The notes under the pieces were generated by a model. That model was not told where the DNA came from and ran no database searches. It was given only the letters and a program-made list of their open reading frames with translations. A stretch of DNA of 64,000 nt from a bacterium. GTDB lineage: Bacteria > Patescibacteriota > Dojkabacteria > SC72. The number at the start of each line of letters is the position of its first letter. The stretch's first letter is position 1. This document shows, one piece after another, positions 1,058 to 64,000 of this stretch. The stretch is taken from the NCBI GenBank assembly GCA_021463465.1, contig JAJTYH010000002.1:1347-65346 (forward strand), given 5' to 3'. Made by a program: the position numbers and the translations under genes.

Positions 1058-1083
1058 ATCACTGAGTATATCATGGTCGAGAG

Positions 1084-1566
1084 ATGAGCAAAGCTCTGAA
1101 ATACATATTAATAGTTGTTTTTGTTTTAATTCCAGCTGTCTTTTGGGTAGTTTTGATAAATCCCTTCAAAACCACTGAAACACAGCTTTATGAGATTAAG
1201 GTAGGGGATCAAAAATTGATGGTAAACCTGGCCGAAACGGAGCAGGAACGTTCTAAAGGGCTTTCAGGTAGGGAACGTTTGGATGGCGAGGAAGGGTTAC
1301 TGTTTGTTTTCAGCCGGGATGTTCAGTCGCCTTTTTGGATGCGTGATATGAAATTTGCAATTGACATCATCTTCATTGATCAGAACTTTTTTGTAACTGG
1401 AATTAAAAACGATGCTCAACCGTGCGAGAGCATTTTAAAGTGTCCGTTAATAATTCCTAACGACAAGTACAGGTATGTACTAGAAGTAAACTCGGGATAC
1501 GCTAACTTGCATGGTATTAAAAAGGGTACTCAGCTTGATCTTACATCTGTGACATTACGAAAGTAA
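1084..1566 (+). CDS. DUF192 (COG1430) family protein with N-terminal signal/anchor
   Basis: A 160-aa ORF with an N-terminal transmembrane helix and a conserved DUF192-like core (GLSGRERLDGEEGLLFVF...MRDMKFAIDIIF). Confidence 0.65.
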   Translation: MSKALKYILIVVFVLIPAVFWVVLINPFKTTETQLYEIKVGDQKLMVNLAETEQERSKGLSGRERLDGEEGLLFVFSRDVQSPFWMRDMKFAIDIIFIDQNFFVTGIKNDAQPCESILKCPLIIPNDKYRYVLEVNSGYANLHGIKKGTQLDLTSVTLRK

Positions 1567-2140
1567 CTTTACGAGACCATTCTTTTGGAGTATGTGGATT
1601 GTATCTGGGAGCAATCTCAGCGGGTGTGTTTGCACCACCAGCATAATAGCCTGCCAAACCTCGTGATACTGTCATGATTGCCTCTTCCCAGCTTCGAAAT
1701 GTAAAGGCGGCTTCAGCTCCTCCCCATCCCCAGGCGTTGTACGGCCTGTAAGTATTCCTACCTCCGCTTGATTCAATAATCGAAATTGCTGCTACTAAAC
1801 GGTAATCAATTCGGTAATATTTGGCTGATTGTACAAGGAATTTAGCTTTGGAAGCTAAAGGTGCCCCACGATTTTTTAAATAGTTCTGAACCCGCTTCAC
1901 TTTCCATTCATCAACCTCAAGTGAACCAATTCTTTCAATTAAGGTTAAAGGGACACTTTCAAACTTAGCTAAATTTAAATTCAGGTTAAAGTTTTCAGTT
2001 TTTAGATTGCTATACGCATAAACTTCTCCAGTATAGAAGTATTGTGGTAGTAAAGTCAGGTAGCGTTCAAAGTAACCTGCAAGCAGCAGTAGTGGAATAA
2101 TTGCTAAAAGAATCTTACTTATATATGATGACTTATGCAT
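1541..2140 (-). CDS. membrane-anchored lysozyme-like / lytic-transglycosylase-like protein (paralog A)
   Basis: N-terminal transmembrane helix. C-terminal block DYRLVAAISIIESSGG...YNAWGWGG has an E-S motif reminiscent of GH23/SLT enzymes. Clear paralog of the ORF at 10355-11062 (shared NAWGW(G/R)G and SxxESxxG). Confidence 0.4.
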   Translation of the reverse strand: MHKSSYISKILLAIIPLLLLAGYFERYLTLLPQYFYTGEVYAYSNLKTENFNLNLNLAKFESVPLTLIERIGSLEVDEWKVKRVQNYLKNRGAPLASKAKFLVQSAKYYRIDYRLVAAISIIESSGGRNTYRPYNAWGWGGAEAAFTFRSWEEAIMTVSRGLAGYYAGGANTPAEIAPRYNPHTPKEWSRKVTFVMSQM

Positions 2141-2180
2141 AGTGGGGAATTATACCAACTAACCTATAATATATGAAGCA

Positions 2181-2798
2181 GTGGTAGAGAATATTGTGCT
2201 TTGGCTAACACATTTGATTGAACAGGCTGGTTATTTAGGTGTCGCCCTTTCAATGTTTATTGAGAGCTTCTTTGTACCAATACCTTCAGAACTGATAATG
2301 CCTTTTGCCGGATTTGTAGCAAGTGAAGGGCGACTTAATCTTGGATTACTTATTATTGTAGGTGGACTCTCAAGCTATTTAGGTTCATTGCCTTTTTATT
2401 TCATAGGTTATTGGGGAAACAAGTTGATTGTTGATAAGTTTTTAAAGCAGTATGGTAAATATCTGTTTTTAACTGAGAAAGATGTGCAAAAGGGCTTTGA
2501 GGTCTTTGAATCCAAAGGTAGTATAATTGTATTACTTGGGAGGATAATTCCGGTCATTCGTAGTGTGATATCTTTTCCAGCAGGAGTTGCAAAGATGCCG
2601 TTTATCTCGTTTTCAATCTTTACCATCGTTGGCTCACTACTTTGGACCGCAATATTAGCTATTTTAGGATATATACTTGGAGCGAATTGGGAAGTAGTAG
2701 GAGATTATGTCGCTAGATACGAGCATTTGGTCATTTATGCCCTGATTGCAATAGGAGTATTTTATATGGTCTCAAGACTCATACGAACTAAGCAGTGA
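2181..2798 (+). CDS. DedA/SNARE-associated (YqaA-type) membrane protein
   Basis: A 205-aa multi-pass membrane protein with the DedA signature (FIESFFVPIPSE...GRIIPVIRSVISFPAG). Confidence 0.8.
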   Translation: MVENIVLWLTHLIEQAGYLGVALSMFIESFFVPIPSELIMPFAGFVASEGRLNLGLLIIVGGLSSYLGSLPFYFIGYWGNKLIVDKFLKQYGKYLFLTEKDVQKGFEVFESKGSIIVLLGRIIPVIRSVISFPAGVAKMPFISFSIFTIVGSLLWTAILAILGYILGANWEVVGDYVARYEHLVIYALIAIGVFYMVSRLIRTKQ

Positions 2799-4316
2799 GT
2801 GTCCAGTCATTTCAGAAGGCGAGGGAATTCCCATTATATCAAGGATTGTAGGTGAGATATCTTTTAGGGCACCATAGGGTAATGTCCGACCAGTTAAGTT
2901 GGGATCCACAATCAATAGTGGCACAGGGTTGATTGAGTGCTCGGTATCAACCTTTCCTGTTGTTAAGTTCAATAACTCCTCTATGTTGCCGTGATCGGCT
3001 GTCAATATTACTGTTCCCCCTCGAGCAACAAATCTCTTGGTCAGTTCAGCTACACAGTAATCAACGACATTAACAGCCTTGATGCATGCTTCGAGATTTC
3101 CAGTATGACCAACCATATCTGTGTTAGCAAAATTTACAAGTACAAAATCGTAGATATCGGCATTAATACGATCTATAAGTAGTTTGGTCACCTCCATGGC
3201 GCTCATCTCTGGCTTTAAGTCGTAGGTAGCAACTGCTGGGGATGGGACTTCAATACGGTCCTCTCCTTGATATTTGATGTTAGTACCACCATTGAAAAAA
3301 TATGTAACATGTGGAAACTTCTCAGATTCAGCAATTCTTAACTGTCTTAAGTTTTGCTCAGCAACTACCTTTCCAAACGGTAGGCTAATATATTCTTTAG
3401 GAAAGATAACTTTGCTTGGTACACCTTTTCGATACTCCACCATACTGGCAAAAAATAAGTTCTGAAATTTAATTGTTTTAAAGTGTGAAAAGTCAGGATT
3501 TACAAATGCATTGGTAAGTTGGAGGGCACGATCTGCTCTAAAGTTCATAAAAAGTACGACATCATTCTCTTTAATACTTGGATTGAGATTATTGTTCATA
3601 ACTAGTGAGGGCAGGATGAACTCATCGGTCTTTCCAGAAGCATATGAAGCAGTCAGAGCATCACTCCAACCTGAATAAGTGATGCCCTCACCTTTGGTAA
3701 GTAAGTCGTATGCCTGCTTAGTTCTATCCCAAGACTGGTTTCGATCCATAGCAAAATATCTTCCTACTATTGCTCCAAACCGACCTAAACCACCAAGTTT
3801 TACAAATTCAGCCTCAATCTCTTTGAAAAATATGCCTGCCTTATCCCGCGGTGTATCACGGCCATCAGTGAAGGCGTGAACAATAAGATCGCCGGCAAAG
3901 TTTTGTTGAGCAAAAAACTCTAAGGTAGCTTTGAAGTGATTGATGTGAGCATGAACAGAACCGTCGCTAAAGCATCCCATTAGATGAACTTTGGATTTAA
4001 ACTTGATAGCGTGTTTTAGTGCTTCCCACAACGTATTATTTGACCGATAATTTCCTTTTTCAATAGCACGGTCAATACGAGGAAGATTCTGACTGACAAC
4101 ACGACCTGCTCCAATATTAAGATGGCCTACTTCACTATTACCTTTAACGCCTTTAGGAAGCCCAACAGCTTCTGAAGACGCTAGTAAGTAGGTGTGAGGA
4201 TAAGTATTCCAGTAGAGGCTTAGGTTCTTAGGGGAAGCAATTGATACGGCATTGCCCTCCGAATCTGGAGCCGCACCAAGTCCGTCCATTATGATTAACA
4301 TGACCTTTTTTTTCAT
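2772..4316 (-). CDS. gpmI: 2,3-bisphosphoglycerate-independent phosphoglycerate mutase
   Basis: A 514-aa ORF starting MKKKVMLIIMDGLGAAPDSEGNA, with conserved iPGM metal-binding blocks (VLVNFANTDMVGHTG; ILTADHGN). Confidence 0.9.
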   Translation of the reverse strand: MKKKVMLIIMDGLGAAPDSEGNAVSIASPKNLSLYWNTYPHTYLLASSEAVGLPKGVKGNSEVGHLNIGAGRVVSQNLPRIDRAIEKGNYRSNNTLWEALKHAIKFKSKVHLMGCFSDGSVHAHINHFKATLEFFAQQNFAGDLIVHAFTDGRDTPRDKAGIFFKEIEAEFVKLGGLGRFGAIVGRYFAMDRNQSWDRTKQAYDLLTKGEGITYSGWSDALTASYASGKTDEFILPSLVMNNNLNPSIKENDVVLFMNFRADRALQLTNAFVNPDFSHFKTIKFQNLFFASMVEYRKGVPSKVIFPKEYISLPFGKVVAEQNLRQLRIAESEKFPHVTYFFNGGTNIKYQGEDRIEVPSPAVATYDLKPEMSAMEVTKLLIDRINADIYDFVLVNFANTDMVGHTGNLEACIKAVNVVDYCVAELTKRFVARGGTVILTADHGNIEELLNLTTGKVDTEHSINPVPLLIVDPNLTGRTLPYGALKDISPTILDIMGIPSPSEMTGHSLLSSYES

Positions 4317-7641: not shown

Positions 7642-9335
7642 TTCTTGTTAATTCTAACATAAAATATGTTAAGCAAAAAAAGCAGAGCCAAGAAACCTAA
7701 AAAGAGTAATAGCTCCGAAAGTACTTGTGTTTTATCGCTTATTCCTGCAATTTGATTTTCAAAGTTCAGTACTTTCTTATCACCTAAAAGCGTAAATACC
7801 TCTAAAGAAGTTTGAGATGGAAAACTTCGTGTTTGCCCTGGGAGTATAAGTTCGTTGACAGTCCCCGCTTTAACAATGACAGGTACATTGCCGCGGTTTT
7901 CCATGGATCTGTCAAAAGACACTACATCAAAATTAGCATCTACTGTCGTAGCTACCGGTGTAATAACTAAATCATTTTTAGATAAAAAGGGTAGCTTAGG
8001 ATGGGTAGGGTTACTGCTTCTGATCAAAAGCTTGAGATAGTTAGGTGAATTCGGTTCAACCGCACCCTTGCTATGCATGTCTTCAAGTGAGGGATCTAGC
8101 AGAGTCCATTGTTTGGTGTCAAAGTTGTAATACTCAACCCATGAATGGTAGAAACCTTCTTGAGTATAAACTGAGGCTTTGGGAATATAACCGACCACCA
8201 TACGTGCAGGTATTGAGGCATTTCTTAAAAGTGCAATCAGTAAATCTACATAATCTTCAGGTACTGCAAAAACCTTCCGGCCTATCGCAACATCTGCGCC
8301 CCCACGGAGAGCGCTTTCAAAAGATGTATCTGCTGTGAGAGTACTCTTTGGGGCAAGAGAAAGCTTTTCTACCACATATGTATTTAAATCCTCAGGTTTA
8401 AACTCGGGCTTATTTTCTAGAAAACCCTTTACCCTGATAAGCTCAAATTCATTAGTTAAATTCCAGTAACCTTGCGTTAGTAAATCGCTTTCTTGATAAG
8501 TCTCGTCATTTGAAAGATCTTTCTTGATTATGTAGCCAGAAATATTCACAGCTTCCTGTCCCTTTGGATTAACAATAAACCCAAGTACAATGTTTTCATC
8601 ATTGTCTAAACGTTGAGTAATAGGTTGGGGAGAAATTGAGCTAATTACGAACTGCTGTTCACTGTCGGTAAATGGTAGTGTCAGTTCATGAATTACAGGT
8701 TCCTCGCTTTCATTTAGATAAATCTTGTTGAACTCGTACTTGTATGTAGGAGGAGTTCCAAATAAGATTGAGATCTCTTGACCAGTAATTCGAGTGAATT
8801 CGTAAGAATTGTACGAGTAGTTAGTTCTTTTGGTCTGTGCTCCCTCGCTCCAGGATACCGCAGGATCATCTGAAGGGTAGATTAATGTGACTTTTGTGAC
8901 ATCCAACCCTGGTATTTTGCCGATTACTTTTGCAAACCCTCCGCTCTTATCAAAGCCTGAAAGCGATTCAAAGGTGATGTCGAATTCAAAGTTATCTCTT
9001 GGAGGAATGACCTTAGTTCCGAAATTGATTATGAGTTCAGTACCATTACGTTGGAGATGACTTGTCAACTTTGCAGAAGTCGGTTGATTTTTGAGTTTGA
9101 GATTCTGAATACCTTGATAAGGAAGCAGTATCGTGTAGTAGTTAAGTACCGCTGGTTCTCTACTCTTATTCTTTAAATCTATTGTTAAAACCGTATTGAA
9201 ACGTCCTTTCTCGTAAGCATACTCAATTCTACCCGTGGAAGTGAGTTGTTCGGCGGCCAAAGCTCTATCAGAAAAAGCGAGAGGGAGATTAAATAGTAAT
9301 AGGGTCAGAAGAAAAAAGCCAAGTAAATTTTTCAT
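7620..9335 (-). CDS. secreted transglutaminase-like (TGase-core) domain protein lacking the catalytic Cys, with C-terminal TM anchor
   Basis: Signal peptide. The block VPEDYVDLLIALLRNASIPARMVVGY...FYHSWVEYYNFDTKQWTLLDPS matches the TGase-core consensus (GvCEDYA...GIPAR...HaWvEvy...D), but the catalytic Cys position is Pro and the 571-aa protein has no cysteine at all. C-terminal hydrophobic anchor plus basic tail. Confidence 0.6.
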   Translation of the reverse strand: MKNLLGFFLLTLLLFNLPLAFSDRALAAEQLTSTGRIEYAYEKGRFNTVLTIDLKNKSREPAVLNYYTILLPYQGIQNLKLKNQPTSAKLTSHLQRNGTELIINFGTKVIPPRDNFEFDITFESLSGFDKSGGFAKVIGKIPGLDVTKVTLIYPSDDPAVSWSEGAQTKRTNYSYNSYEFTRITGQEISILFGTPPTYKYEFNKIYLNESEEPVIHELTLPFTDSEQQFVISSISPQPITQRLDNDENIVLGFIVNPKGQEAVNISGYIIKKDLSNDETYQESDLLTQGYWNLTNEFELIRVKGFLENKPEFKPEDLNTYVVEKLSLAPKSTLTADTSFESALRGGADVAIGRKVFAVPEDYVDLLIALLRNASIPARMVVGYIPKASVYTQEGFYHSWVEYYNFDTKQWTLLDPSLEDMHSKGAVEPNSPNYLKLLIRSSNPTHPKLPFLSKNDLVITPVATTVDANFDVVSFDRSMENRGNVPVIVKAGTVNELILPGQTRSFPSQTSLEVFTLLGDKKVLNFENQIAGISDKTQVLSELLLFLGFLALLFLLNIFYVRINKKWFRIMR

Positions 9336-9591
9336 ACTTTCTTAGAATCTGTTTAATTAGAGGGGTTTTGCTGGTAATACCCTTCTGTGTAAGCGTTTTG
9401 TCCCAACTAATTTTCTTAGGTGTGTTCGCCAGCCTATATTCGGGGTTTCGAACAATCTCTTGCTTGGCGTTCTTACGAATAACATAATATGACATACCCC
9501 TCATGTCATCAAGTGAATCATGAATTTTGATCCCACTAAAAGAGTATTCGGCAATGATTAATGGTGTCGCTTTAGTATTTGCTAAGCACAT
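9289..9591 (-). CDS. hypothetical protein, translationally coupled to the upstream ORF
   Basis: The frame opens just after a TAA. An ATG (9591-9589) overlaps the upstream ORF's stop. The ORF table offers a TTG start at 9606. Confidence 0.35.
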   Translation of the reverse strand: MCLANTKATPLIIAEYSFSGIKIHDSLDDMRGMSYYVIRKNAKQEIVRNPEYRLANTPKKISWDKTLTQKGITSKTPLIKQILRKYEKFTWLFSSDPITI

Positions 9592-10019
9592 TTCAAAATT
9601 TGGCAAAACAATTGCCTTCTGACCCTTTTCAAGTTAGTGTAGTAAATATCACCCTCGAATTTCTGTCCGAAATCTTGCATCATAAGTACACCTCCACCGT
9701 ATACAACCTCAATCAATCGGGGGTAGCTTTCAACCATATTGGCACGAGTTTTGACGAATTCTATCCCTGCAAGGTTTGGCATAATTACATAGAAATTAAT
9801 CTCTAAATTCTTACTCTTATATATTCCATCTTGATCAAGGCATGTGTATTTGTCATAAAAAGTTTCCGGACATGTGACTTCGTTGTTTAGCAGTTGTTTA
9901 CGGATATCATCAAGGCCGATTCTTTGAATTTGCTGAAATTGTAAGCCTGAGGCCATTAACGTTTCATTTTCAAAATGAATAGGAAAACCAGAGGATTTTC
10001 TCAAATCGATCTTCGTCAT
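9582..10019 (-). CDS. hypothetical protein
   Basis: A 145-aa ORF with no recognisable motif. Its stop overlaps the ATG of the next small gene (ATGTGCTTAG junction). Confidence 0.4.
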   Translation of the reverse strand: MTKIDLRKSSGFPIHFENETLMASGLQFQQIQRIGLDDIRKQLLNNEVTCPETFYDKYTCLDQDGIYKSKNLEINFYVIMPNLAGIEFVKTRANMVESYPRLIEVVYGGGVLMMQDFGQKFEGDIYYTNLKRVRRQLFCQILKCA

Positions 10020-20103: not shown

Positions 20104-21875
20104 ATGCCTGAACTTAAAAGGTTATCGGATGAGTTGATTAGTCAGATCGCGGCTGGAGAAGTGGTTGAACGACCTGCTTCTGTACTTAAAGAATTAATAG
20201 ATAATTCAATAGACGCTGGCGCTACTCAGATAAAGGTAAAGCTCAAAGATGGTGGTCTGAAATTGGTTGAGGTTTCTGACAACGGTAGCGGAATGCCCAA
20301 AGAAAATCTTTTGAAAGCTTTTGAACCGCATACGACAAGTAAGATTTCTAATCTGAAGGATCTTAGTGACATAAGGACGATGGGATTTAGAGGAGAAGCC
20401 TTAGCAACAATACTTTCGGTAGCTCAGGTAGAAGTCACATCAGGGCATGACAAGAGTGCGTATTCAATCGTGTTTTCTCAGGAACGCACACCGAAAAAGG
20501 CGGCTCGGAATATAGGTACGACAGTTTCTGTGGCTAACCTTTTCTTCAATACCCCAGCTAGACTAAAGTTTATGAAGACTGCAGAGACGGAATATCGTAA
20601 GATTTTGGAGGTATTTAATAGCTATGCCTTAGCTTATCCTAAAATTCACTTTATTCTTGAAAAGGATCAGAAAGAAGTCTTTAATCTTCCCTCCAGAAAT
20701 GAGGTGAATTTGGACAAAAACAGGGTATTTGAGGTTCTGAAAAAAGCTTTTGTGGAGCGAATGATTCCGATTAAGTCTGAAGGGGCAGGTATTAAAATTA
20801 TCGGACTGATAGGACATCCTTCGGATAGTGCTGTAAAGCAGAATGAACAGTATGTTTTTGTGAATAACCGTCCAATTTGGGATAACGGTATATCAAGAGC
20901 TATACACCAAGGTCTTTCCCGCTTTATTCCACATATGTTTAAGGTGCCGTTTATTATAAAGCTTTTTGTTAAAGCCGATTTAGTTGATGTAAATGTCCAT
21001 CCACGTAAGGAGGAAGTGAAATTTATCAATCCTTTCAGGGTTTATATAGCTATTGAGCAGGCGGTCAAACAAACCGTAGAGCAAGCGACCCAAATGGCAT
21101 ACACGCCACCATCTTCATTTAAGCAAAGTCAACCTACCAAAGGTTACTTATTTGACAACACTGAGATAACTTATACGAAACAAAACGACGTGAAGGAGGT
21201 GAGATTTGGTAAAAAAACTTCTGATTTTAATATTTCCAGAAGCATTGACTTTACCAAGCATATATTGAGAGCTGAAGATACTCAAACCTTTAAGTCTGAA
21301 CCTTTTAAAGCGGTTTACCAACTGTTTAATAAGTATATTGTCATAGAATTTGAAAGTGGGATTTGGCTGATTGATCAGCATGCGGCAGCAGAGAGAATTA
21401 CCTTTGAAAGGTTAGAGAAACAGTATCAAAGTAAGAAGAAAGAGATTCAAAAGCTTTTGGTTCCAACCACAATTGAGATTAGCGATGCTGAAAGTTCCTA
21501 TTTAAAGGAAAATCAGCAATTTTATGAGGATTTAGGCTTTGAACTTAAAATCAATGAGAATGTTTTAGAGATATATTCCATTCCTTCTTTCTTGATGGTA
21601 GGTGGAGTAGAAGAAGTTTTTAAATCGTTATTTGACATCAAAGACGGAGTTACCGATCTCAAGGATAATTACGAAAAAAAATGGGAGATATTTTTGCTGC
21701 TATTGCCTGCCACAGTAGTGTTAGAGCTGGTCAGGGGCTTTCTACACCTGAACTTATCAACATTTATCAAGAACTAGGTCAATGCCGAAATCCTTTTTCT
21801 TGTCCTCACGGCCGTCCTGCAGTGTGGAAGCTGCCATTGACTGAAATCGACAGTCATTTTTTACGGACATACTGA
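20104..21875 (+). pseudogene. mutL: DNA mismatch repair protein MutL, interrupted by a single-base indel in an A8 homopolymer (21674-21681)
   Basis: The N-terminal 20104-21777 piece carries the GHKL ATPase (ELIDNSIDAGA...SDNGSGM). The conserved MutL C-terminal endonuclease/dimerisation motifs (IAACHSSVRAGQ...CPHGRP) sit in a different frame (21681-21875). The switch coincides with the A8 run; adding one A (or removing two) restores ...DNYEKKMGDIFAAIACHSS. Confidence 0.7.
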
Positions 21876-25683: not shown

Positions 25684-26639
25684 GCTTCTTGTAGGTATTT
25701 TTCTACCTCTAGTACAGCACTTACAGCCATCCCTGATGCCGTTGCGGCTTGCCTATACGTGTAATCCACACAATCTCCTGCAGCAAATACCCCTTTGATA
25801 TTTGTAGAGAATCTATAGGGAAGGGTGTAACCTGACTTTATCTGCTCTATGTTTTCATACATCACACGTTCCTTTGTATAGATATATCCTTTCTCATCAA
25901 GCTGTACTCCTGAATCCGCAAGAAAAGTAGTGGCTGGTATATGCCCAATGGCTAAAAACAGACCTTGAGTGCTTACCGTTTGTTCTTGGCCATTCGCTAT
26001 AACTTTCACGGCTTCAACCCTATCTTCTCCTATAACTTCTTTAACTGTAGTATTCCACAACACCTTAATTTGTGGATGATTTAAAACTCTTTCTTGCATG
26101 ATTTTTGAAGCTCTAAAAGTATCTCTGCGATGGACAACTATTACATTCTTAGCAAATTTAGTTAGATATAGAGCTTCTTCCATTGCGCTATCTCCGCCTC
26201 CTACAACCACAACATCCTTATCTTTAAAGAAAAAACCATCGCATGTTGCACATGCTGAGACTCCGTGGCCTCGTAGACGTTGTTCAGATTGTAAACCAAG
26301 CCATTTAGGCTCTGCTCCAGTCGCTATTAACAATGCCTCGGTCTCGTATTCCTCATCAGTTTCTGTCATTACTTTTATCACTGAGCTAGTTTTTACCTCT
26401 TTTATTTTCTGCGATACTATTCTGGTACCAAACCTTAAAGCTTGATTACGAAATTGCTGCATCAATATAGGTCCCAATATTGGATTCTCAAATCCTGGGT
26501 AATTTTCAACATCGGAGGTTAAACCTAGCTGTCCACCAGGAATACCTTCAAAAAGTATCGGATTAAGAAGTGCTCGTGAAGCATAAATAGCTCCTGCTAA
26601 ACCAGCAGATCCACCTCCAATAATAATCAGTTTCTCCAT
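25680..26639 (-). CDS. trxB: thioredoxin-disulfide reductase
   Basis: N-terminal FAD site GGGSAG, redox-active CATCDG, and NADPH site GGGDSAMEEALYL. Confidence 0.9.
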   Translation of the reverse strand: MEKLIIIGGGSAGLAGAIYASRALLNPILFEGIPGGQLGLTSDVENYPGFENPILGPILMQQFRNQALRFGTRIVSQKIKEVKTSSVIKVMTETDEEYETEALLIATGAEPKWLGLQSEQRLRGHGVSACATCDGFFFKDKDVVVVGGGDSAMEEALYLTKFAKNVIVVHRRDTFRASKIMQERVLNHPQIKVLWNTTVKEVIGEDRVEAVKVIANGQEQTVSTQGLFLAIGHIPATTFLADSGVQLDEKGYIYTKERVMYENIEQIKSGYTLPYRFSTNIKGVFAAGDCVDYTYRQAATASGMAVSAVLEVEKYLQEA

Positions 26640-26653
26640 AACTCTTAAGTATA

Positions 26654-27103
26654 CTAGTGTTTTATATATTTTTGAAATAGTGACTGGTACCTTTTAAAGG
26701 TATACAGAAAGCCTGAATGTAATGGTTTGGGTAATTTGTCTAATGAAAACCATGAAAAAGTTTCAAACTTATTTGGCTCGTTGTTTCTAACTTCTTTAGG
26801 GTCAACTAAAACAAAAAAGGGGATAGCAACCCAATGTGTTTTTTTCCCGTTCAACAAGCGAAAAATAGTATGTACTGGCACAGCCTCCTGAATAGTTATA
26901 TTCTTGCACCCATACTCTTCTTTTATTTCCCTGACAACATTTTGTTCAGGAGTTAGTCCTAATTCAAGTAGACCAGAGCCAGGATCCCACCTACCTTGTT
27001 CATCCCGAGCATTACGACTACGTTTACTTAACAGGAAAAGGCCATTGCCATCATTACAGTAAAATGGAGTACATATTCCGACGTAGTCTATACCTGGTTT
27101 CAT
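26654..27103 (-). CDS. NUDIX hydrolase
   Basis: Nudix box GSGLLELGLTPEQNVVREIKEEYG (GX5EX7REUXEEXGU). Confidence 0.75.
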   Translation of the reverse strand: MKPGIDYVGICTPFYCNDGNGLFLLSKRSRNARDEQGRWDPGSGLLELGLTPEQNVVREIKEEYGCKNITIQEAVPVHTIFRLLNGKKTHWVAIPFFVLVDPKEVRNNEPNKFETFSWFSLDKLPKPLHSGFLYTFKRYQSLFQKYIKH

Positions 27104-27112
27104 ATCGTTATA

Positions 27113-27186
27113 TCGGGGAGACAGGACTTGAACCTGCGACCTCTGCGTCCCAAACGCAGCATTCTAGCCAACTGAACTACTCCCCG
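27113..27186 (-). tRNA. tRNA-Pro (anticodon UGG)
   Basis: Reverse complement folds with acceptor CGGGGAG/CTCCCCG (C1:G72, typical of tRNA-Pro), anticodon stem CTGCG/CGCAG with loop TTTGGGA, and T-loop TTCAAGT. Confidence 0.85.
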
Positions 27187-27217
27187 AAAAGTACTCTTCC
27201 GAGTACTTAATTAAAAC

Positions 27218-27550
27218 TTAGTATTTGTTTACTAAATCCAAGGCAAATTTTGAAACGTTGGGGATATCCCATCGCTCTCCCTTGTATGCCTTCAGGGCAG
27301 CCATAATGGTTAAAATCAAACCAATAAGGTTAACAAAAGGCGCAATACAAACTACTAGGGACAACACTAAGAGCACAAGAGTGATTACTGAGAATTGCGC
27401 TGCATAGTATCTCACAAAAAGATCCTTCTTTTCAACTAAAAACACTACCACTGCTATCATAGGAATACACGCTACAACAGCCAGAAGCGCATTATCTTTG
27501 TTAAATTTAATATCATCTAACGTTACGACTCGTTTAGCCTCTGTTGCCAT
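27218..27550 (-). CDS. small membrane protein (DUF4870/Tic20-like, putative)
   Basis: A 110-aa ORF with 2-3 transmembrane helices. FVRYYAAQFSVITLVL resembles the DUF4870 core. Confidence 0.3.
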   Translation of the reverse strand: MATEAKRVVTLDDIKFNKDNALLAVVACIPMIAVVVFLVEKKDLFVRYYAAQFSVITLVLLVLSLVVCIAPFVNLIGLILTIMAALKAYKGERWDIPNVSKFALDLVNKY

Positions 27551-27661
27551 AAAAATATGTATAAAATTTAAAAACTGCAGTTAAGTATATTAATTCTCTT
27601 ATTAATAATCAAGGTATCAGTATTTAATTATATAAGCTGTTGTAAACTTAATTAGAGCCAG

Positions 27662-27676
27662 GTATACTACGTATAC
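27662..27676. promoter_or_regulatory. candidate LexA operator: GTATAC-N3-GTATAC, embedding the perfect 10-bp palindrome ACGTATACGT
   Basis: Palindromic half-sites 23 bp upstream of the lexA start codon. Only one copy was seen in the window, so the assignment is tentative. Confidence 0.25.
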
Positions 27677-27698
27677 GTTAAGTTAATTATGAAAGTTT

Positions 27699-28340
27699 AT
27701 GAACCCTTACGTAACCGAAAAGCAGGTGAAGGTCTTGACTATAATTAGGGATTTTTACCTAGAAAAAGGCTATGCACCATCGCTTTCAGAACTCCAACAG
27801 CTTTTAAAGATTAGCACTAAAAGGGGGGTTGTGAACCATCTAATTGCACTTGAAAAAAAGGGTTTTATTATACGAACGAGTGAAGCCAGGGGGATTCAGC
27901 TAGTAGAGGAAGGTGAGTATGAATATATGGTTGGAGTCCCTATATTAGGTTATGCAAACGCAGGTACTCCTCTTGCAATGGCTGAAGAAGCACGTTTGGG
28001 CGTTCTACATATAGATAAGGCTCTTCTTAAACACAAAAACGACCTTTTTGCCCTTATCATTAAAGGTGACTCTATGAATCAAAGAGTAATTAACGGCAAA
28101 AAACTTGAGGATGGTAGTTTTATTGTTGTATCAAAACAGAGCGAGATTCGATCCGGCGATGCAGTTGTAGCAATCTTGGACAATTCAGCTACAGTTAAAT
28201 CGATTAAATACGATGAAAATATGATTGTACTTTATCCTCAATCAGATAATGAAAGACATATGCCAATCTACTTAGATAAATATAGCAACTCACTAATCAA
28301 TGGCAAGGTTGTGATGGTATTGGATAATCCCAAGTATTAG
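27699..28340 (+). CDS. lexA: LexA repressor (S24 peptidase)
   Basis: N-terminal winged HTH (LTEKQVKVLTIIRDFYLEKGYAPSLSEL), an Ala-Gly cleavage region (ANAGTP), catalytic Ser in GDSM, and a downstream Lys. Confidence 0.85.
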   Translation: MNPYVTEKQVKVLTIIRDFYLEKGYAPSLSELQQLLKISTKRGVVNHLIALEKKGFIIRTSEARGIQLVEEGEYEYMVGVPILGYANAGTPLAMAEEARLGVLHIDKALLKHKNDLFALIIKGDSMNQRVINGKKLEDGSFIVVSKQSEIRSGDAVVAILDNSATVKSIKYDENMIVLYPQSDNERHMPIYLDKYSNSLINGKVVMVLDNPKY

Positions 28341-28403
28341 TTTTCTTGATAAAACCCTTTTCCCAGTGTAGGATATATCTTATCCTAACTTGATTTTTCT
28401 TTT

Positions 28404-29681
28404 ATGAGTAAGACAAAAGTTGCCGTCATCGGATTAGGTTATGTAGGCTTTCCATTGCTTTGCGCTATTGCTAAATCCGGTAAATATGAACCAATCGGTT
28501 TTGACCTTTCTAAGGAGAAGATAGATTTAATTAAAGAGTATAAGTCGCCTATCAAAGATGAGTTGGCAGAGAAATTAGTTAAAGAAATAAAATATGAAGC
28601 GAGTAACGAACCAGTAATTCTTAAGAACACCCAAATCTTTATTATTTGTGTTCCGACTCCAGTGGATGAGCAATTCGACCCAGATTATGGACCCATTATT
28701 TCAGCTGTTCAGACAGTCGCTCAATATATTATTAAAGGTTCCTACGTTGTCATTGAATCAACAGTTAACCCAGGTACTTGTGAAGAAATAGTTCTTCCAT
28801 TATTAGAAAAGCTAACAAAACTTAAAGCAGGGATTGATTTTGAGTTAGCCCATTGTCCTGAGCGTATCAATCCTGGAGATCCAAAGTGGAATGTACTCAA
28901 TATCCCTAGAAATATAGGTGCTTTGACAAGTAAAGGCACTAAATACCTGGCTGATTTTTATCGTTCATTTATTGATGCACCGATCAATGAAATGGAAACA
29001 ATTAAAGAAGCTGAGGCGACCAAAATCATCGAAAATACCTTTAGAGATATAAATATTGCCTATGTAAACGAACTGGCAAAGTCTTTTGATGTATTAGGTA
29101 TTGATTTAGTAAATGTTATAAAAGGTGCAAGTAATAAACCCTTTGCTTTTATGGCACATTATCCTAGTTGTGGTGTAGGAGGGCACTGTATTCCAGTTGA
29201 CCCATACTATCTGATTGAACGTGCCAAGAAGTCCGGATTTGACCATAAGTTTTTAAGATCGGCAAGGACAGTAAATAATAGTATGCCAGAGTATACCGTC
29301 AACAAACTTCTTATGGCGTTAAATGAGAGATCAAAAGCTATGAAAGGCTCTACAATTGCCTTACTCGGTCTTTCATACAAACGCGATATTGGTGATTTGC
29401 GTGAAAGTCCAGCTCTAATTATTAGGAAAATATTACAGAAGGATTATTTAGCTGACTTAAGAGTTTATGACCCATATAACCCAGAACAAAGTACTCATAA
29501 AACATTGGACGAAGTATTGAAAAATGTTGATGCAGTATTAATTGCAACTGATCACACTGAATTCAGAGAATATCCTAACGAAAAGTGGGCTAATGTGCCA
29601 ATAATCATTGATGGTAAAAATTGTTTAGATAAGAAGAAACTCCTATCATTAGGGCTAACTTACAGGGGGATTGGGCGATAA
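28404..29681 (+). CDS. nucleotide-sugar dehydrogenase (UDP-glucose/UDP-ManNAc dehydrogenase family)
   Basis: N-terminal Rossmann VAVIGLGYVGFPL, a catalytic Cys region (GVGGHCIPVDPYYL), and the C-terminal UDP-binding domain. Confidence 0.85.
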   Translation: MSKTKVAVIGLGYVGFPLLCAIAKSGKYEPIGFDLSKEKIDLIKEYKSPIKDELAEKLVKEIKYEASNEPVILKNTQIFIICVPTPVDEQFDPDYGPIISAVQTVAQYIIKGSYVVIESTVNPGTCEEIVLPLLEKLTKLKAGIDFELAHCPERINPGDPKWNVLNIPRNIGALTSKGTKYLADFYRSFIDAPINEMETIKEAEATKIIENTFRDINIAYVNELAKSFDVLGIDLVNVIKGASNKPFAFMAHYPSCGVGGHCIPVDPYYLIERAKKSGFDHKFLRSARTVNNSMPEYTVNKLLMALNERSKAMKGSTIALLGLSYKRDIGDLRESPALIIRKILQKDYLADLRVYDPYNPEQSTHKTLDEVLKNVDAVLIATDHTEFREYPNEKWANVPIIIDGKNCLDKKKLLSLGLTYRGIGR

Positions 29682-55262: not shown

Positions 55263-56028
55263 TTTACATAGTTCTAATTAAAAGTTAGTCCTAACGAATT
55301 TTACAATACAATAACTTGTTTTAAAAAAGCTATTCATTTTTCACGGAACTACATTCTCAAATAATAACTAAACTCATAATTAATAATTCAGATTGAAAGA
55401 ATCCTTTTGAAAAGTATGATAAAAGAAGCCTAATTGTTCATTTAAGTGTTTCTTAAAGTTGCAGTTAGCTTCTGTCTGGAAAAGGAGTTAAAACTCGTAA
55501 ACCATTGTTATCACAAAATTCTTTTGCAAACGGTAGTATTTGTTCTGATGCAGGTTCATGATGCAGATAACTAAAGGTATAGGTAAATCCAGATTGTGTG
55601 TAAAGATTTAAGCTTGTTACCTTAACATCAGCTATCTGCGACTGAAGGCAACATGGGTGTGAGCTAAAACCAACTATACCTAAAGGAATATGTCATTGCA
55701 TTGATGTTCTTAACTCAGATACAGATGTGAAGGCTCCTAGATACTCATGACCTCCATACATGTTTAGTTTATCGCCTACTAACTTTTCGTAGTATTCAAG
55801 ATTGTGGATATTCGTTTCAATAGTCATAGAGGGCCATTTTATCACAAACACTTATTTGAAAACCATTTATCTCAAATGATTTTTACGTATTTTCAATACA
55901 TCATTACTGCTTAATTTAGCCTAATTATCAAACGTTCATTTTTTAAAAATTAAATTTGATTTTTAATGATGTATTGCATAAATTGAACGAATACAGGAAC
56001 CAATTAGTTTTAAATTACGCTATTTGAA

Positions 56029-57955: not shown

Positions 57956-58504
57956 ATGACAGCAGAAACAACATTTGAAGTAAGTGGCCAGCAATTTGAA
58001 TTAGGACTTCTTGAATTAAAGGATGTAGAAGATTTAGTTGAAGTCGCCAGACAGTGGGTAAGAAATAGACATACAGGACAAGTAGAAGAAGTGGAACTTG
58101 CCGAAATTAAAAGCAGAATGCTATCAAGTTTACAATCTCAAGAATACAGATACTTTGTAATACGAGATAATGAAAGCAAAGCAATAGGTTGTTGTGCAAT
58201 AAGAGAACCAGAAGAAGCAATGCAACAATACAAATCATCGCCTGATAGAAAAACCTCTGAATTTGTAAATGTGTTTCTAGACAGCAAACACAGAGGTTTA
58301 GGACTAGGGTATAGACTTATGAACTATATGTTTGAAAAAGCGAAAGAGTTGGGTCAAGAAGAAGTTATATGGAATAGTGGACCAAGATACAAAAATAGTG
58401 CTTGGGACTTTTATAACAAATTAGCTGGTGAACCTATTTTTGTTGCAAAAGAATTTTACGGTAAAGATGGGGATGCTCCAATTTGGAAAAAAGTAATTTC
58501 TTAA
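57956..58504 (+). CDS. GNAT family N-acetyltransferase
   Basis: HRGLGLGYRLMNYMFEKAKELG is the GNAT motif A (R-x-x-G-x-G). Confidence 0.7.
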   Translation: MTAETTFEVSGQQFELGLLELKDVEDLVEVARQWVRNRHTGQVEEVELAEIKSRMLSSLQSQEYRYFVIRDNESKAIGCCAIREPEEAMQQYKSSPDRKTSEFVNVFLDSKHRGLGLGYRLMNYMFEKAKELGQEEVIWNSGPRYKNSAWDFYNKLAGEPIFVAKEFYGKDGDAPIWKKVIS

Positions 58505-58894
58505 AATAGCGCTACTATTACAGATTTTTCAACAAAGACAGACGAATATCAATTAAGTGCATTTTCCTTTCCAGAAGTATCAGAGATTAGAAGTTTTGCT
58601 ATTGAGTTAGCACTAAAGTCGGGTCTTTTTAACCCAAAAACTGATGTATGGTTAGAAAGAATACAAACAAGGTATTTAGATACTGGCCAAAGATTGGGAG
58701 AGACAACTGGAGGTGATGCTCTTTTATCACTTATTAAGAGAGCAACCTTTCTACGGAATAGGAGAGTTGTGTGTTTAGTAACAAGTTTATCTGCAGTAAT
58801 TGATACTGAGAAACTACTTACGTTTTACCTTAAGAATGGATTTAGCCTCAGTGAAATAGAAGGTGTTACTTTCGCATATTTAGATATTCAATAG
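58505..58894 (+). other. open frame in phase with the upstream GNAT (separated only by TAA) encoding a second GNAT-like C-terminal segment with no canonical start for 63 codons
   Basis: Hand translation of the frame shared with 57956: ...RLGETTGGDALLSLIKRATFLRNRRVVCLVTSLSAVIDTEKLLTFYLKNGFSL is GNAT motif A/B-like. The first ATG/GTG/TTG in this frame is at 58694. Confidence 0.3.
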
Positions 58895-59099
58895 CTAAAT
58901 GATTGGTTTTGTTATACTTGTAGGATATTTTACATTAAACTTCATGACAAACTTCAGTTTCAAAAAAAATATGTTGATTGATTTCGTTATACAAGTGATA
59001 GATGAATAACTGAGCTGGAATTATAATTATTTATCGTTTTGAAAAAGAAAGTAGAACACAACAGAGAATGTATTGGCAAACTAAGCGAATAATTCAAAT

Positions 59100-60059
59100 A
59101 TGAAAACTGTTTTAACAAAATCCGGAAAAGAGCTCTCTCCGATAGGAATAGGCACATATGGGATTGGCGGGAGAGGGCATCGTGATGTAAAGCTAAAAGA
59201 TAAGAAGGACGAATCAATATATGTACCGGCAATAATCACTCAATTACAAACAGGCTATAACTTTTCGGAGATATCTCTGGGGTATGGCCACGGAAAATCT
59301 GCTGAATATTTTGCACGTGCAAGACGAGAGAGTGGAATTGAAAGGGACGAGCTTTTCCTTACCAATTCAATATACCCAAGAGATATTTTGGATTTAAAAG
59401 TGTTAAAAGAAGATGTAGAGAAAATGTATGAAATATTCGAAACAGACTACTTCGATTCAACACTTGTGACACAATCATTAATTGTTAAATTTGGGTATGA
59501 GCAGGTGATAAAGATGCTTTGGGATCTTCTAAAGAAGAACAGAACCAGATATGTTACTCTTTCAAACTCAAATAAGAAACTAATCAAACAATTCCACGAT
59601 GAATTTAAGGGAAGTTTCTTTGCTCATGAAACTCACATCAGCTATGAAATTAGACTATGTCAAGATGAAGGTATCTTTGACCTCTCAAACAAACTCGGTC
59701 TACAAACCATTATTTGGAGACCCTTGCGACAAGGTTTGACAGCACAACACAACTGGGAGCTTCTACTTAAACTCTCTGAAAAGTATGGTAAAACTCAAAA
59801 TCAAATTGTACTCAACTGGATGATGTCACTCGGTTTTAAGCCAGAAGTATTTTCAACATCGATTACTCATATAAAAGAGAATTGGGAAGCAATGCAATTT
59901 GAACTTACAAAAGATGATTATGACGCGATAACAAGGCACCGAATACCAAACTACTCTCCACCAAAGATTAACTGGGATAATATGGGAAATGGGGATAGTA
60001 TCGTCCTGCCTGTTATGAATTTTGAAGAGGATTACAAGAAACCTACTCAGAATCAATAG
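59100..60059 (+). CDS. aldo/keto reductase family oxidoreductase
   Basis: IGIGTYGIGG and an overall 319-aa AKR (TIM-barrel) pattern. Confidence 0.7.
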   Translation: MKTVLTKSGKELSPIGIGTYGIGGRGHRDVKLKDKKDESIYVPAIITQLQTGYNFSEISLGYGHGKSAEYFARARRESGIERDELFLTNSIYPRDILDLKVLKEDVEKMYEIFETDYFDSTLVTQSLIVKFGYEQVIKMLWDLLKKNRTRYVTLSNSNKKLIKQFHDEFKGSFFAHETHISYEIRLCQDEGIFDLSNKLGLQTIIWRPLRQGLTAQHNWELLLKLSEKYGKTQNQIVLNWMMSLGFKPEVFSTSITHIKENWEAMQFELTKDDYDAITRHRIPNYSPPKINWDNMGNGDSIVLPVMNFEEDYKKPTQNQ

Positions 60060-60130
60060 GAAAAGCCTTAAATATCCGACGGATCTGTTTGATTAATCAA
60101 ACTTTATAGTATAGAATCCAGCACTTTCAC

Positions 60131-60370
60131 AAGGAGGTTGTGATGAAAACAAAGAAGAGAGAGCAAGAAAAGAAGACGGGAAAGGGAGGAGGAAGGCAGA
60201 AACAAACGAGAGAAAAGAAAAGGAGGAAAGGCTGGATAAATCGTAAGTAATCACGAAATCTAAAAAGAAAGGAGGTGAGGGAGTTGGCCCAAACCAAAAA
60301 AGAGAAGAAAAAAAAGGAAAAGGGGAAGCAGAAACCGACCGCTAAAACCAACGGCAAGAAAGGACACTAG
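60131..60370 (+). other. 240-bp polypurine (AG-rich) tract with repeated AAGGAGG motifs and two tiny Lys/Arg-rich ORFs
   Basis: The + strand is almost entirely A/G. AAGGAGG-N5-ATG (60143) opens a 35-codon ORF, MKTKKREQEKKTGKGGGRQKQTREKKRRKGWINRK. AAGGAGG-N8-TTG (60284) opens a 28-codon ORF, (M)AQTKKEKKKKEKGKQKPTAKTNGKKGH. Confidence 0.4.
60143..60250 (+). CDS. candidate 35-aa highly basic micro-protein with a canonical SD
   Basis: A perfect AAGGAGG is placed 5 nt upstream of the ATG, and the 35 codons end at TAA. The composition could instead just reflect the purine tract. Confidence 0.25.
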   Translation: MKTKKREQEKKTGKGGGRQKQTREKKRRKGWINRK

Positions 60371-60550
60371 TCCCATTCTGCCTCCAAAAGTGGGCTTATT
60401 CAGATTCAACATCACATGAGTAAGCCCACTTGCAACATTTTTCACACTCTCAACCGTTAAGAAAAATTTTGTTTTCGACCAAAATACTACTATAATACTG
60501 CCACTTCGAACATTTTTGTTGACTCAAATAATTGGAAATCTACTAACCAG

Positions 60551-62317
60551 ATGAGAAATATCTTTAAAATTATAAAGCTAAGCAAACCACTACACGGTTT
60601 GATGCTCTTAATTATTGTAATTGTAATACTTGGAACCCTTTTTGAAATTGTCACACCACTTCTTTCTGGAAAAATCCTAGACGAGGTAATTAGGCAATCA
60701 ACAAACCAAACGAAAGAATTTAGTAAACTCTTCACTCTTTTGGCACTTTCACTTTCATCAATTATCATCTACTTAGCGCTAAGGTCACTAGGGCAAAGAT
60801 TAGGCGACCATCTATCTGGGAAAATAAGAAAATTCCTCACAGAAATATTCTATGATAAAGCATTGAAGATCTCACAATCGTATTATGATTCAGAAATTTC
60901 AGGAAAATTAGTCAACCAGTTAAATAGAGGAATTGCTTCAATACAAGAATTTGCGAATGCCTCAACCAACTTTATCATCCCAACCTTTCTACAATCTTTT
61001 ATTGTTATAGGAATCCTAATGTACTTCAACCTATACTTAGGAATCTTAATGATTTCAATCCTTCCTATCTATCTATGGATTACATCTATCTCAACAAAAA
61101 GATGGGGGCTCAAGGAGGAAGGTAAAAATAAGATTGAAGATTTAACAAGAGGAAGGATTCAGGAGGTGATATCCAATATTAAACTTGTTAAAGGATTTAC
61201 GTCTGAGAAGAGAGAATTTAAGCTGCTTTCAACAAACTTAGACCAAATAAACGCAATATATAAACAGCAAAGTACAGAATTTCACCTTTTTGATTTTTTA
61301 AGAGAGTTAATTCTTAATGTAATCCTTTTTGGAACCGCTTAGATTATCTACAACAATACTTTAAATGGTCTTATTACCGTTGGGTCAGTCATTGTTTTAA
61401 TACAGCTTGTTGACAGAGCAAGATCATCCCTTTTTGGAATGTCATACATCTTAGGACAAATACAAGCAATCGATTCGGGCTCCAAAGAGTTTTTTGAAGT
61501 TTTAAATATTGAGACTACAGAAGATTACAACAAGAAACAAAAGTTTGAAAAAATTAAAAACCCAAAAATTGAGTTCCAAGATGTTACTTTCCAATATGAC
61601 AGTAATAAAACTGTACTAGAAAATGTTTCTTTTGATTTAAGTAAAAATGAAATGGTAGCACTTGTTGGCCCAAGTGGAGCAGGGAAGTCTACAATAGTTA
61701 ATCTGCTTCTCAAGTTCTATAACCCTACCTCAGGAGCCATTACATTTAATGGGAAAAAGTATTCAAAACTCTCACATAACCAAGTTAGGAATAATATAGC
61801 ATTAGTATTTCAAGAGAATGAACTCTTCTCACTATCTATCAAAGAGAATGTTGCATATGGAAGCGATATTGATGATAAGAAAGTCATATCTTCGCTTAAA
61901 AAAGCTAATGCCTGGGAATTTGTAAGTAACTTAGAAAAAGGAATAGATACCTAAGTAGGGGAAAGAGGAATTAAGCTTTCTGGCGGTCAGCGGCAGAGGA
62001 TTCAAATTGCTAGAGCCATATACAAAGATGCACCTATACTAGTACTTGATGAAGCAACATCAAGTTTGGATGCTAAATCCGAAAGTGATGTTTCAGAAGC
62101 TATTGAAAATCTTGTTAAAAATAGGCTAGTTATCGTCATTGCACACAGATTCTCAACAATTCAAAATGCGACAAAGATTATAGTTTTAAATAATAAAAAG
62201 GTAGAAGCAATTGGTGCACCACATATTTTAGCAAAAAAACCAGGTATTTACTCTGAACTTCTTAAGTATCAGATAAAGGGGAATAAGAAACTGCTCAAAA
62301 AGTTTGAGTTGTATTAA
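60551..62317 (+). pseudogene. MsbA/Sav1866-type ABC exporter (TMD-NBD fusion) interrupted by two in-frame stop codons (TAG 61340-61342, TAA 61952-61954)
   Basis: The ORF-table pieces 60551-61342, 61439-61954 and 62066-62317 all lie in one frame. Hand translation across the stops is continuous and conserved: ...LFGTA*IIYNNTLNGLITVG... (TM helix 6) and ...NLEKGIDT*VGERGIKLSGGQRQRIQIARA...VLDEATSSLD... (Walker A GPSGAGKST; signature and Walker B lie beyond the second stop). Confidence 0.75.
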
Positions 62318-62956: not shown

Positions 62957-64000
62957 ATGAAAAAACTCTTGGTAACTATGCTAACTCCTATCCTGATTAG
63001 CTTAATATACCTAGTGCAAACTCCCCAAAACATATCCGCTTCATTAAATACTTGGCTACAAACAGATTGGAGCGGAGGAAATGGACAAACTTCTTGGAGT
63101 GACGACACTAAGTACAACGTATCAAGCAATGTCGTGGCAAATGATTCAATCAGCCTAACAAATAGTAACAATTGGAACGACAGTAACTGGTTATATAGGA
63201 AAAAAATTACCTTTAATAATTCAGCGCAAGCAGAAAACCTTGATAATTTCATCGCAATGGTCAATTTGACCTCAGATAATTTTGATTTCACTAAGACAAA
63301 AGCAAATGGTGAAGATATTCGTTTTTTTGATGAAAACGGTTCAACTGCTTTAGAATATGATATTGAGGAATTTAATCAAAGCGCACAGGAGGCAATTATC
63401 TGGGTAAAAGTACCCAGAATTGATGCATCATCATCAACTGATAACATCATTATGTATTACGGAAATACATCTGCTAATGACTCACAAAACCCAACTTCAG
63501 TGTGGTCATCATACGAGCTCGTTTATCAAATGAATCAAGATCCATCAGGCTCAGCTCCACAAATTCTGGATAGCACAAACAATAATAGAGATGGAACTAC
63601 TTTTGGCTCTATGGCAAGTAATCAGTTGTTAACTGGTAAAATCGGTTCGGGTATTAACTTTGATGGGGTCAATGACTATATTAATGTAGGAAATATGAAC
63701 CCACATACATATGGAAGCGCAACCTTTTCGGCTTGGTATAAGTCATCTATCAATACATCAACTGATGATCAATATATCCTCCTTTATCTAGGTGGAGATA
63801 GACTTGTATTTGGTTTAACTGATGATTCAGGGAAAGTAGATCGAGCTAGGTTCTGTCTTAAGGAAAGCTGTTTCTTTGGTACTACCGATGTTGTAGACCA
63901 ACAATGGCACCATATTGTTGTTGTTAGAGATTATAATTCTACCCACAAACTATTTGTTGATGGCAATCTACAATCAAGTACCGCAGCACCGTTTCTTGGA
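62957..64000 (+). CDS. DUF2341 plus LamG/concanavalin-like domain surface protein; the C-terminal end runs off the window
   Basis: Missing from the ORF table because it has no stop. ATG at 62957 with a signal/anchor (LLVTMLTPILISLIYLV). NWLYRKKITFNN...GEDIRFFDENGSTALEYDIEEFN...IIWVKVPRI matches DUF2341. Then GINFDGVNDYINVG...W...LFVDGN is LamG-like. In frame through position 64000. Confidence 0.6.
   Translation, partial: MKKLLVTMLTPILISLIYLVQTPQNISASLNTWLQTDWSGGNGQTSWSDDTKYNVSSNVVANDSISLTNSNNWNDSNWLYRKKITFNNSAQAENLDNFIAMVNLTSDNFDFTKTKANGEDIRFFDENGSTALEYDIEEFNQSAQEAIIWVKVPRIDASSSTDNIIMYYGNTSANDSQNPTSVWSSYELVYQMNQDPSGSAPQILDSTNNNRDGTTFGSMASNQLLTGKIGSGINFDGVNDYINVGNMNPHTYGSATFSAWYKSSINTSTDDQYILLYLGGDRLVFGLTDDSGKVDRARFCLKESCFFGTTDVVDQQWHHIVVVRDYNSTHKLFVDGNLQSSTAAPFLG

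Follow-up and report, generated by a model that had tools for sequence, protein, structure and literature searches.

In the 64-kb window of bacterial DNA analysed here, a gene-dense stretch with a GC content of about 36% as seen in maps of its open reading frames (ORFs), positions 57956-62317 hold three unrelated things: a complete gene for a GNAT N-acetyltransferase, a small gene of a rare family that follows it in the same reading phase, and an inactivated ABC exporter gene of subfamily B. A first-pass annotation had read this interval as otherwise conserved coding sequence interrupted by three in-frame stop codons within 4.4 kb, and had offered local relaxed selection or, speculatively, tolerated readthrough as the cause. 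The GNAT stop lies at the position that it gave, and the two stops in the ABC gene, for which it gave no exact positions, are present as well, but as interruptions the three reduce to one gene with two stops.

For comparison, window positions 5985-64000 were set against near-identical contigs of sister assemblies, which are publicly available and show 99.2-100% identity to the window. They come from the Logan assemblies SRR17318674/75/76/79, SRR30163052 (contig L085), SRR26868052/53 (SRR26868053 being contig L102), SRR31850038 and ERR10655368, and from the metagenome-assembled genome (MAG) GCA_020853275.1 at NCBI (contigs L086 and L101); contigs L001-L003 likewise belong to Logan assemblies. 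Searching the literature by accession and by run identifier yielded nothing. The features discussed below, including the differences that are private to the window's own assembly, are collected in Table 1.

Table 1. Features of the window and private differences from the sister assemblies. TMD, transmembrane domain; NBD, nucleotide-binding domain; SNP, single-nucleotide polymorphism.
Feature	Position	Strand	Basis or remark
GNAT N-acetyltransferase gene, complete, 182 aa	57956..58504	+	Pfam Acetyltransf_1, E=2e-11
Small gene, ~125 codons, rare family	58517..58894	+	2 homologs, Met aligned with ATT
ABC subfamily-B exporter gene, TMD + NBD, 588 codons, putative pseudogene	60551..62317	+	Pfam domains across stops, intact relatives
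TAG, codon 264 of the ABC gene	61340..61342	+	Private; TTG (Leu) in sister assemblies
TAA, codon 468 of the ABC gene	61952..61954	+	Common to all species assemblies covering the site; conserved Glu in relatives
Orphan frame, 120 codons, in-frame TGA at 55693-55695	55465..55827	-	Six-frame scan
Cupin-type glucose-6-phosphate isomerase gene (PF06560), split	9582-10019 + 9289-9606	-	T4 run at 9626-9629
mutL	20104-21777	+	A8 run; 557-aa product
Gene for a secreted DUF2341/LamG/Pur_ac_phosph_N protein	62957 to beyond 64000	+	Poly-T tract at 63322-63328
Private deletion, T5 to T4	9626-9629	-	Splits the 243-aa glucose-6-phosphate isomerase gene (PF06560)
Private deletion, A9 to A8	21674-21681	+	MutL shortened from 590 to 557 aa
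Private deletion, T8 to T7	63322-63328	+	DUF2341 reading frame restored
Six private SNPs, none synonymous	6621, 34058, 42128, 49013, 49939, 61341		

The GNAT gene ends where its family ends. Its product shares both termini with its homologs and is a full-length member of the single-domain GNATs (PF00583; proteins of ~180 aa). A search with the conceptual read-through product against 5.8 billion proteins recovered 13 homologs, all 173-187 aa long and each covering just the first 52-58% of the query; none of the 13 spans the GNAT gene and the downstream frame in one ORF. Every one of the 11 homologs that were aligned has the shared C-terminus DAPxW[RK]K and ends 0-4 residues after it. Most homologs are 59-84% identical to the window protein, the most distant aligned one 42%. 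At three of the homolog loci (84%, 75% and 61% identity), nucleotide similarity to the window stops ~10 nt before the TAA, protein similarity ends at residue 179-182, and the DNA 3' of the gene is unrelated, often carrying a gene on the opposite strand. Because the lengths and C-termini of the homologs coincide with the TAA at 58502-58504, this codon is, as judged from the family, the natural GNAT stop, and it does not break a conserved coding sequence. A GNAT-GNAT fusion produced by readthrough was likewise rejected, given this match of lengths and C-termini with the stop and the absence of downstream synteny or similarity. Tandem-GNAT proteins such as MshD and Eis exist, but the window gene differs from them in not being tandem; the frame behind it is unrelated in sequence and missing from the loci of its relatives.

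In contigs L090 (positions 1-3629) and L091, the GNAT has a Transposase_mut gene and a serine recombinase as neighbours, and for the closest homolog (84% identity) these stand immediately 5' of it. MAGs labelled as Dojkabacteria and Atribacterota harbour similar GNATs (59-75% identity). Owing to these neighbours and to this recurrence, the gene looks horizontally mobile. We read the GNAT locus as an intact, mobile acetyltransferase gene that simply ends at its TAA.

Behind the GNAT gene, and in its phase, the first-pass annotation had correctly recorded an open frame of 129 codons, which ends with the TAG at 58892-58894 and contains no ATG, GTG or TTG for 63 codons, the first being the TTG at 58694 (codon 64). 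When 1.84 billion cluster representatives were searched exhaustively with HMMER, only 2 relatives of this frame emerged: P0134, with 159 aa (E=3.6e-9), and P0135, with 124 aa (E=1.4e-7). Scans for the family among viral contigs and the metagenome contigs of JGI returned no relative. The alignment has 23 invariant columns, including FNP..D.W and FY..NGF, and the window frame keeps all 23. In it, I-T-D-F-S of the window stands opposite M-T-N-[YL]-S, whose Met is the start residue of P0135 and an internal residue of P0134; the window codon at the position of this Met is ATT (58517-58519). This codon stands 12 nt after the GNAT stop and is identical in L001-L003. With two distant homologs of its own whose Met aligns with the ATT, the frame is a separate gene that shares the GNAT phase by chance, and not, as had been proposed, an interrupted continuation of the GNAT gene.

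The same frame had been described as GNAT-like. At the level of sequence this found no support: the frame has zero matches in Pfam and NCBIfam, even at E<=10, and hhalign assigned a probability of 0.1% to its relationship with the GNAT alignment. At the level of fold, something of the claim survived: a low-confidence AlphaFold2 model (predicted local distance difference test score, pLDDT, of 56), when compared to the PDB with Foldseek, retrieved GNATs as nearly all of its top 50 matches, albeit with weak E-values of 0.05-0.6. The small protein may therefore be weakly GNAT-like, by predicted fold only.

The ATT permits two views of how this gene stands today. AUU is a known, weak bacterial start codon, used in infC and pcnB of E. 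coli, and here too the ATT is found where homologs have ATG; its position shortly past an upstream stop also resembles arrangements with termination-reinitiation coupling. Translation of the small gene could begin, weakly, at this AUU, possibly with ribosomes that reinitiate past the GNAT stop, or the gene could recently have lost its ATG. In contrast to infC and pcnB, it is known from sequence alone and has no known autoregulatory logic, and it may just as well be a start-loss pseudogene. That it is one, with a change from ATG to ATT as the second fixed lesion of this accessory region, has in our estimate slightly less than an even chance: both homologs have Met at the aligned position, no alternative start codon occurs within 63 codons and further lesions are present in the surrounding region, but the frame has stayed open for 125 codons within a 35% GC context, all family-invariant residues have been retained, AUU can serve as a start, and the short distance to the GNAT stop would permit coupled reinitiation. 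Gene callers have overlooked this gene, which is small, belongs to a rare family and has ATT in its start position.

The two in-frame stops that the first-pass annotation had reported in the ABC exporter gene were both found. For the Pfam searches, the stops were written as X in the conceptual translation, and both domains cross them: ABC_membrane (PF00664) at residues 18-286 (E=3.9e-25) and ABC_tran (PF00005) at residues 356-504 (E=3.9e-35). The gene belongs to a family of conserved 588-aa proteins that is found across many genomes of the candidate phyla radiation (CPR). Intact 588-aa relatives are 56-75% identical, the closest 75%, and the nearest named ones come from MAGs of Candidatus Saccharibacteria (72% and 68%), followed by Curtissbacteria and Dojkabacteria. 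As in MsbA/Sav1866-type exporters, an N-terminal six-helix membrane domain precedes one NBD, and Walker A, LSGGQ, Walker B and the H-loop are recognisable in the conceptual translation; unlike in these exporters, the frame is broken, by the TAG at codon 264 in one assembly and by the TAA at codon 468 in all, so that no uninterrupted ORF combines the four motifs. The closest relatives (L004-L006) have no neighbouring gene in common with the window locus.

The TAA at codon 468 is present in 5/5 assemblies that cover the site (the window, L001-L003 and L101); an exact-pattern scan of JGI contigs for the stop site gave zero matches. In L004, L005 and L006 the aligned residue is Glu, encoded by GAG or GAA in the two closest, and it stands in the NBD motif DT-E-VGERG. 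A single G-to-T change is enough to turn an ancestral GAA into TAA. We propose that the exporter was inactivated through such a GAA/GAG-to-TAA nonsense mutation. The LSGGQ signature, Walker B (ILVLDEAT) and the H-loop (IAHR) all lie 3' of this codon, and a 467-aa product would keep the membrane domain, Walker A and the Q-loop. As the established mechanism of ABC proteins requires the lost elements for ATP hydrolysis, this product should be ATPase-dead.

Along the 120 codons past the TAA, the encoded protein is still 81-87% identical to that of the relatives; codon positions 1 and 2 are 87-89% identical, and position 3, which is saturated, 33-37%. This difference between codon positions points to strong purifying selection until recently and therefore to a recent lesion. 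The inactivation of the exporter thus appears to be evolutionarily recent and fixed in the sampled assemblies of the species. By these comparisons the gene would qualify as a pseudogene, or at least as the carrier of a lineage-wide nonsense codon. For this species, annotation of the ABC exporter as a pseudogene is warranted, next to a GNAT gene that is complete.

Several further observations concern the ABC gene and its surroundings. In GCA_020853275.1, the fragment that follows the TAA has been called as a 115-aa protein with an ATT start (L101 1660-2007, corresponding to window 61970-62317); a Shine-Dalgarno-like GGAAAGAGGA abuts this ATT, too close for normal initiation. Upstream, between the aldo-keto reductase and ABC genes, lies a 250-nt tract of 79% purine (60121-60370), which is missing 5' of the ABC gene in the relatives. 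It holds two very short ORFs with highly basic products, at 60143-60250 (35 aa, MKTKKREQEKK...) and at 60284-60370 (28 aa, MAQTKKEKKKK...), and a strong Shine-Dalgarno-like GGAGG precedes each of them. The contig of GCA_020853275.1 begins inside this tract, about 240 nt 5' of the ABC start.

The other stop of the exporter, the TAG at codon 264, is confined to the window's own assembly. All others that cover the site (4/4; L001, L002, L003 and L101) have TTG, with T at the position of window A61341; relatives carry S, V, I or A (TCC, GTA and ATA among the codons), and a protein look-up found no 263-aa product outside the source contig. This substitution is one of nine private differences in the compared region, namely six SNPs and three single-base homopolymer deletions. 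The private SNPs comprise 0 synonymous and 6 non-synonymous changes, and 1 transition and 5 transversions; the corresponding figures for inter-strain SNPs (n=143) are 99 synonymous and 32 non-synonymous, and 85 transitions and 58 transversions. Drawn from the inter-strain totals, six non-synonymous changes would occur by chance with a probability of about 3e-4 (hypergeometric). One of the six sites, 6621, may lie between genes, as the start that the gene caller chose for the gene there is further downstream. Among 15 billion proteins, the TAG, the mutL A8 allele, the T4 allele of glucose-6-phosphate isomerase (GPI) and four missense protein variants are found in no other assembly.

The lack of synonymous private SNPs implies that this set has not been filtered by selection, and that it therefore stems from consensus error or from very recent mutation. 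The TAG, the mutL and GPI frameshifts and the five further substitutions would accordingly fall into one of these two classes. We regard it as an evenly balanced question whether all of these lesions (the TAG at 61341, mutL A8, GPI T4 and the missense SNPs) are consensus errors, such as homopolymer deletions and substitutions that persist in a long-read assembly, with the shared TAA as the only biological one. Such an origin would fit the three private indels, which are all single-base homopolymer deletions and include the longest run of the region, and it would fit the SNPs, where 0/6 synonymous and 5/6 transversions agree with random error (2:1 transversions expected) and differ from natural inter-strain variation; the lack of the private protein variants from all other assemblies points the same way. 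Against it, the T7 tract at 63322 restores an ORF and recurs in the independent contig L102, for which reasons we take T7 to be a real polymorphism. The possibility that the stops are sequencing artefacts, which the first-pass annotation had itself raised, is thus retained in part: the TAG at 61340-61342 and mutL A8, each present in one assembly only, are possibly artefacts; the TAA is seen in every assembly that covers it.

The homopolymer frameshift that had been reported in mutL is present: the window has an A8 run and a 557-aa product, near-identical contigs (L084 and L104 for the run) have A9 and a product of 590 aa. Within the compared region, the sister assemblies have no other homopolymer as long as this A9 run, and the A8 allele occurs in the window's assembly only. 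GPI is similarly split by a run of T4, private to the window assembly, in place of the T5 of L104-L106, yielding ORFs of 145 aa and 105 aa (the gene caller's second product has 100 aa) instead of the unsplit 243 aa. One could accordingly think of a mutator clone deficient in mismatch repair (MMR) through mutL, in which homopolymer slips and point mutations accumulate, the private lesions are real and the TAG is a second hit in an already dead ABC gene. We consider this unlikely. It has in its favour that MutL is cut before its C-terminal end, that three homopolymer length changes fall within 58 kb, that the six private SNPs, none of them synonymous, seem unscreened by selection, and that T7/T8 variation is real in nature; a further point of resemblance to MMR-deficient mutators is that mutL itself holds the longest A-run of the region. 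However, transitions dominate MMR-deficient mutation spectra, while 5/6 private SNPs are transversions, which disfavours a mutator origin of these SNPs, and the A8 allele is found in no independent assembly.

The poly-T tract in the DUF2341 gene is of another kind. With T7, as in the window and L102, the gene is a single unbroken ORF whose product has a signal peptide; with T8, as in six other samples (among them L001-L003, L101 and L103), it is split into 124 aa and 665 aa. The tract thus represents a frame-switching homopolymer length polymorphism between otherwise identical sequences, and it resembles the contingency loci of phase variation, here in a CPR bacterium. Like such loci, it is in frame or frameshifted depending on the sample; in contrast to them, its variation is known between samples and not as switching within one population. 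It would be an improbable extension, more so than the mutator clone, to suppose that the lineage uses homopolymer switches in general, with DUF2341 turned on and off by T7/T8, mutL A9 flipping to a mutator state, the small gene reinitiated at AUU, and the TAG and GPI lesions real. Before mutator biology or genome decay is inferred from this assembly, its nine private differences need to be checked against the reads.

Further upstream, the first-pass annotation had taken a 766-bp gap for a frameshifted gene remnant. The gap exists (55263-56028, 29% GC), but descent from a known gene by frameshift was not borne out, and that origin was rejected as no family or homolog matched. It contains a 120-codon frame with an in-frame TGA, for which no homolog was detected in Pfam, NCBIfam or protein databases beyond P0136, a protein from the same locus with Trp at the position of the TGA. 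The contigs from which P0136 derives, L107 and L108 (100% identical to the window) and L109 (99.7%), all carry the TGA; we therefore discarded P0136 as an intact version of the ORF, its Trp being the product of gene calls with translation table 4 on three short contigs. The frame is an orphan and possibly a decayed gene. Same-phase open frames past stops, and code-4 calls on short contigs, can mimic recoding in CPR genomes.

Recoding itself is known from CPR and other bacteria: code 25, in which UGA encodes Gly, is used by Gracilibacteria and Absconditabacteria, and code 4, with UGA as Trp, by Mollicutes. The window resembles these cases in coming from a CPR lineage with in-frame stops in otherwise conserved frames, and, for code 4, in the TGA=Trp calls on the short contigs of the gap ORF. 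It differs from them in that the stops of the ABC gene are TAA and TAG and not TGA, that all three stop codons terminate genes, and that a single conserved gene is hit. The 61 genes of the window end with TAA in 42 cases, with TAG in 14 and with TGA in 5, and the tRNAs encoded in it are Gly(TCC), Gln(TTG) and Pro(TGG) only, so that a global reassignment of stop codons was rejected on account of this usage and of the ordinary tRNA set. The search for suppressor tRNAs that the first-pass annotation had called for was run within the 64-kb window and found none. We also considered a SECIS-like (selenocysteine insertion sequence) or readthrough-stimulating RNA structure past the stops, and rejected it, as the RNA folds no better than shuffled sequences behind the gap TGA (z = +1.0) or the ABC TAA (z = -0.18); an Rfam scan of 53-64 kb yielded nothing credible. 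Throughout 5985-64000, the gene calls of near-identical contigs agree with the ORFs of the window, and in-frame stops are limited to the ABC gene and the orphan frame.

That the stops are tolerated, with readthrough or suppression of TAA and TAG yielding the ABC exporter in full length and a fused GNAT-GNAT protein, was the speculative part of the original proposal. It draws on the fact that the frames remain open and conserved past each stop, yet the GNAT family never continues beyond its stop, most genes of the window end with TAA or TAG, neither a suppressor tRNA nor a stimulatory structure was found there, the ABC TAG is missing from all sister assemblies, and only one gene is affected. 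We hold this to be extremely improbable. We take the window to come from a Saccharibacteria-like genome (CPR/Patescibacteria) with the standard bacterial code; stop-codon readthrough is neither required nor suggested by the data, and the claim is not supported.

In our assessment, the locus is very probably a case of ordinary gene decay, in which a recent ABC pseudogene lies beside a complete GNAT gene and a small gene that had been missed, with no readthrough involved. Some of the evidence weighs against this. Apart from its stops, the ABC frame is without frameshift or decay and contains zero inter-strain SNPs, and on sequence alone the exporter may still function; the evidence on tRNAs and release factors covers 64 kb, and a suppressor or an altered factor may be encoded elsewhere; and the independent recurrence of the frame-restoring T7 in L102 indicates that some of the private differences are real. 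The value of the present case lies in annotation and quality control; it does not advance an open biological question.

Seen over the whole window, the clustering of lesions that had been called notable is not apparent, as the private gene-breaking lesions are dispersed at 9.6, 21.7 and 61.3 kb. The region from 55 to 63.4 kb does stand out by its lower GC content (31-35%), its loose packing and its lack of synteny with the closest relatives fetched. Of the lesions in it, the ABC TAA is certain and lineage-wide, and two others are uncertain, namely the TGA of the gap and the ATT in start position; the T7/T8 polymorphism lies there too. Because of this content it is plausible that selection is mildly relaxed here, in what would be an accessory region. 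From the suggested relaxed selection with accumulating pseudogenes, then, the ABC pseudogene stands, and the relaxation has the rank of a plausible idea.

A last observation concerns the differences between strains. L085 and L086 differ from the window by 27-44 SNPs, which are mostly found in a ~2.7-kb stretch at 26241-28931. The genes in this stretch are those for a NUDIX protein, lexA and UDP-glucose dehydrogenase, its flanks are nearly identical between the strains, and it looks like a recombination tract.

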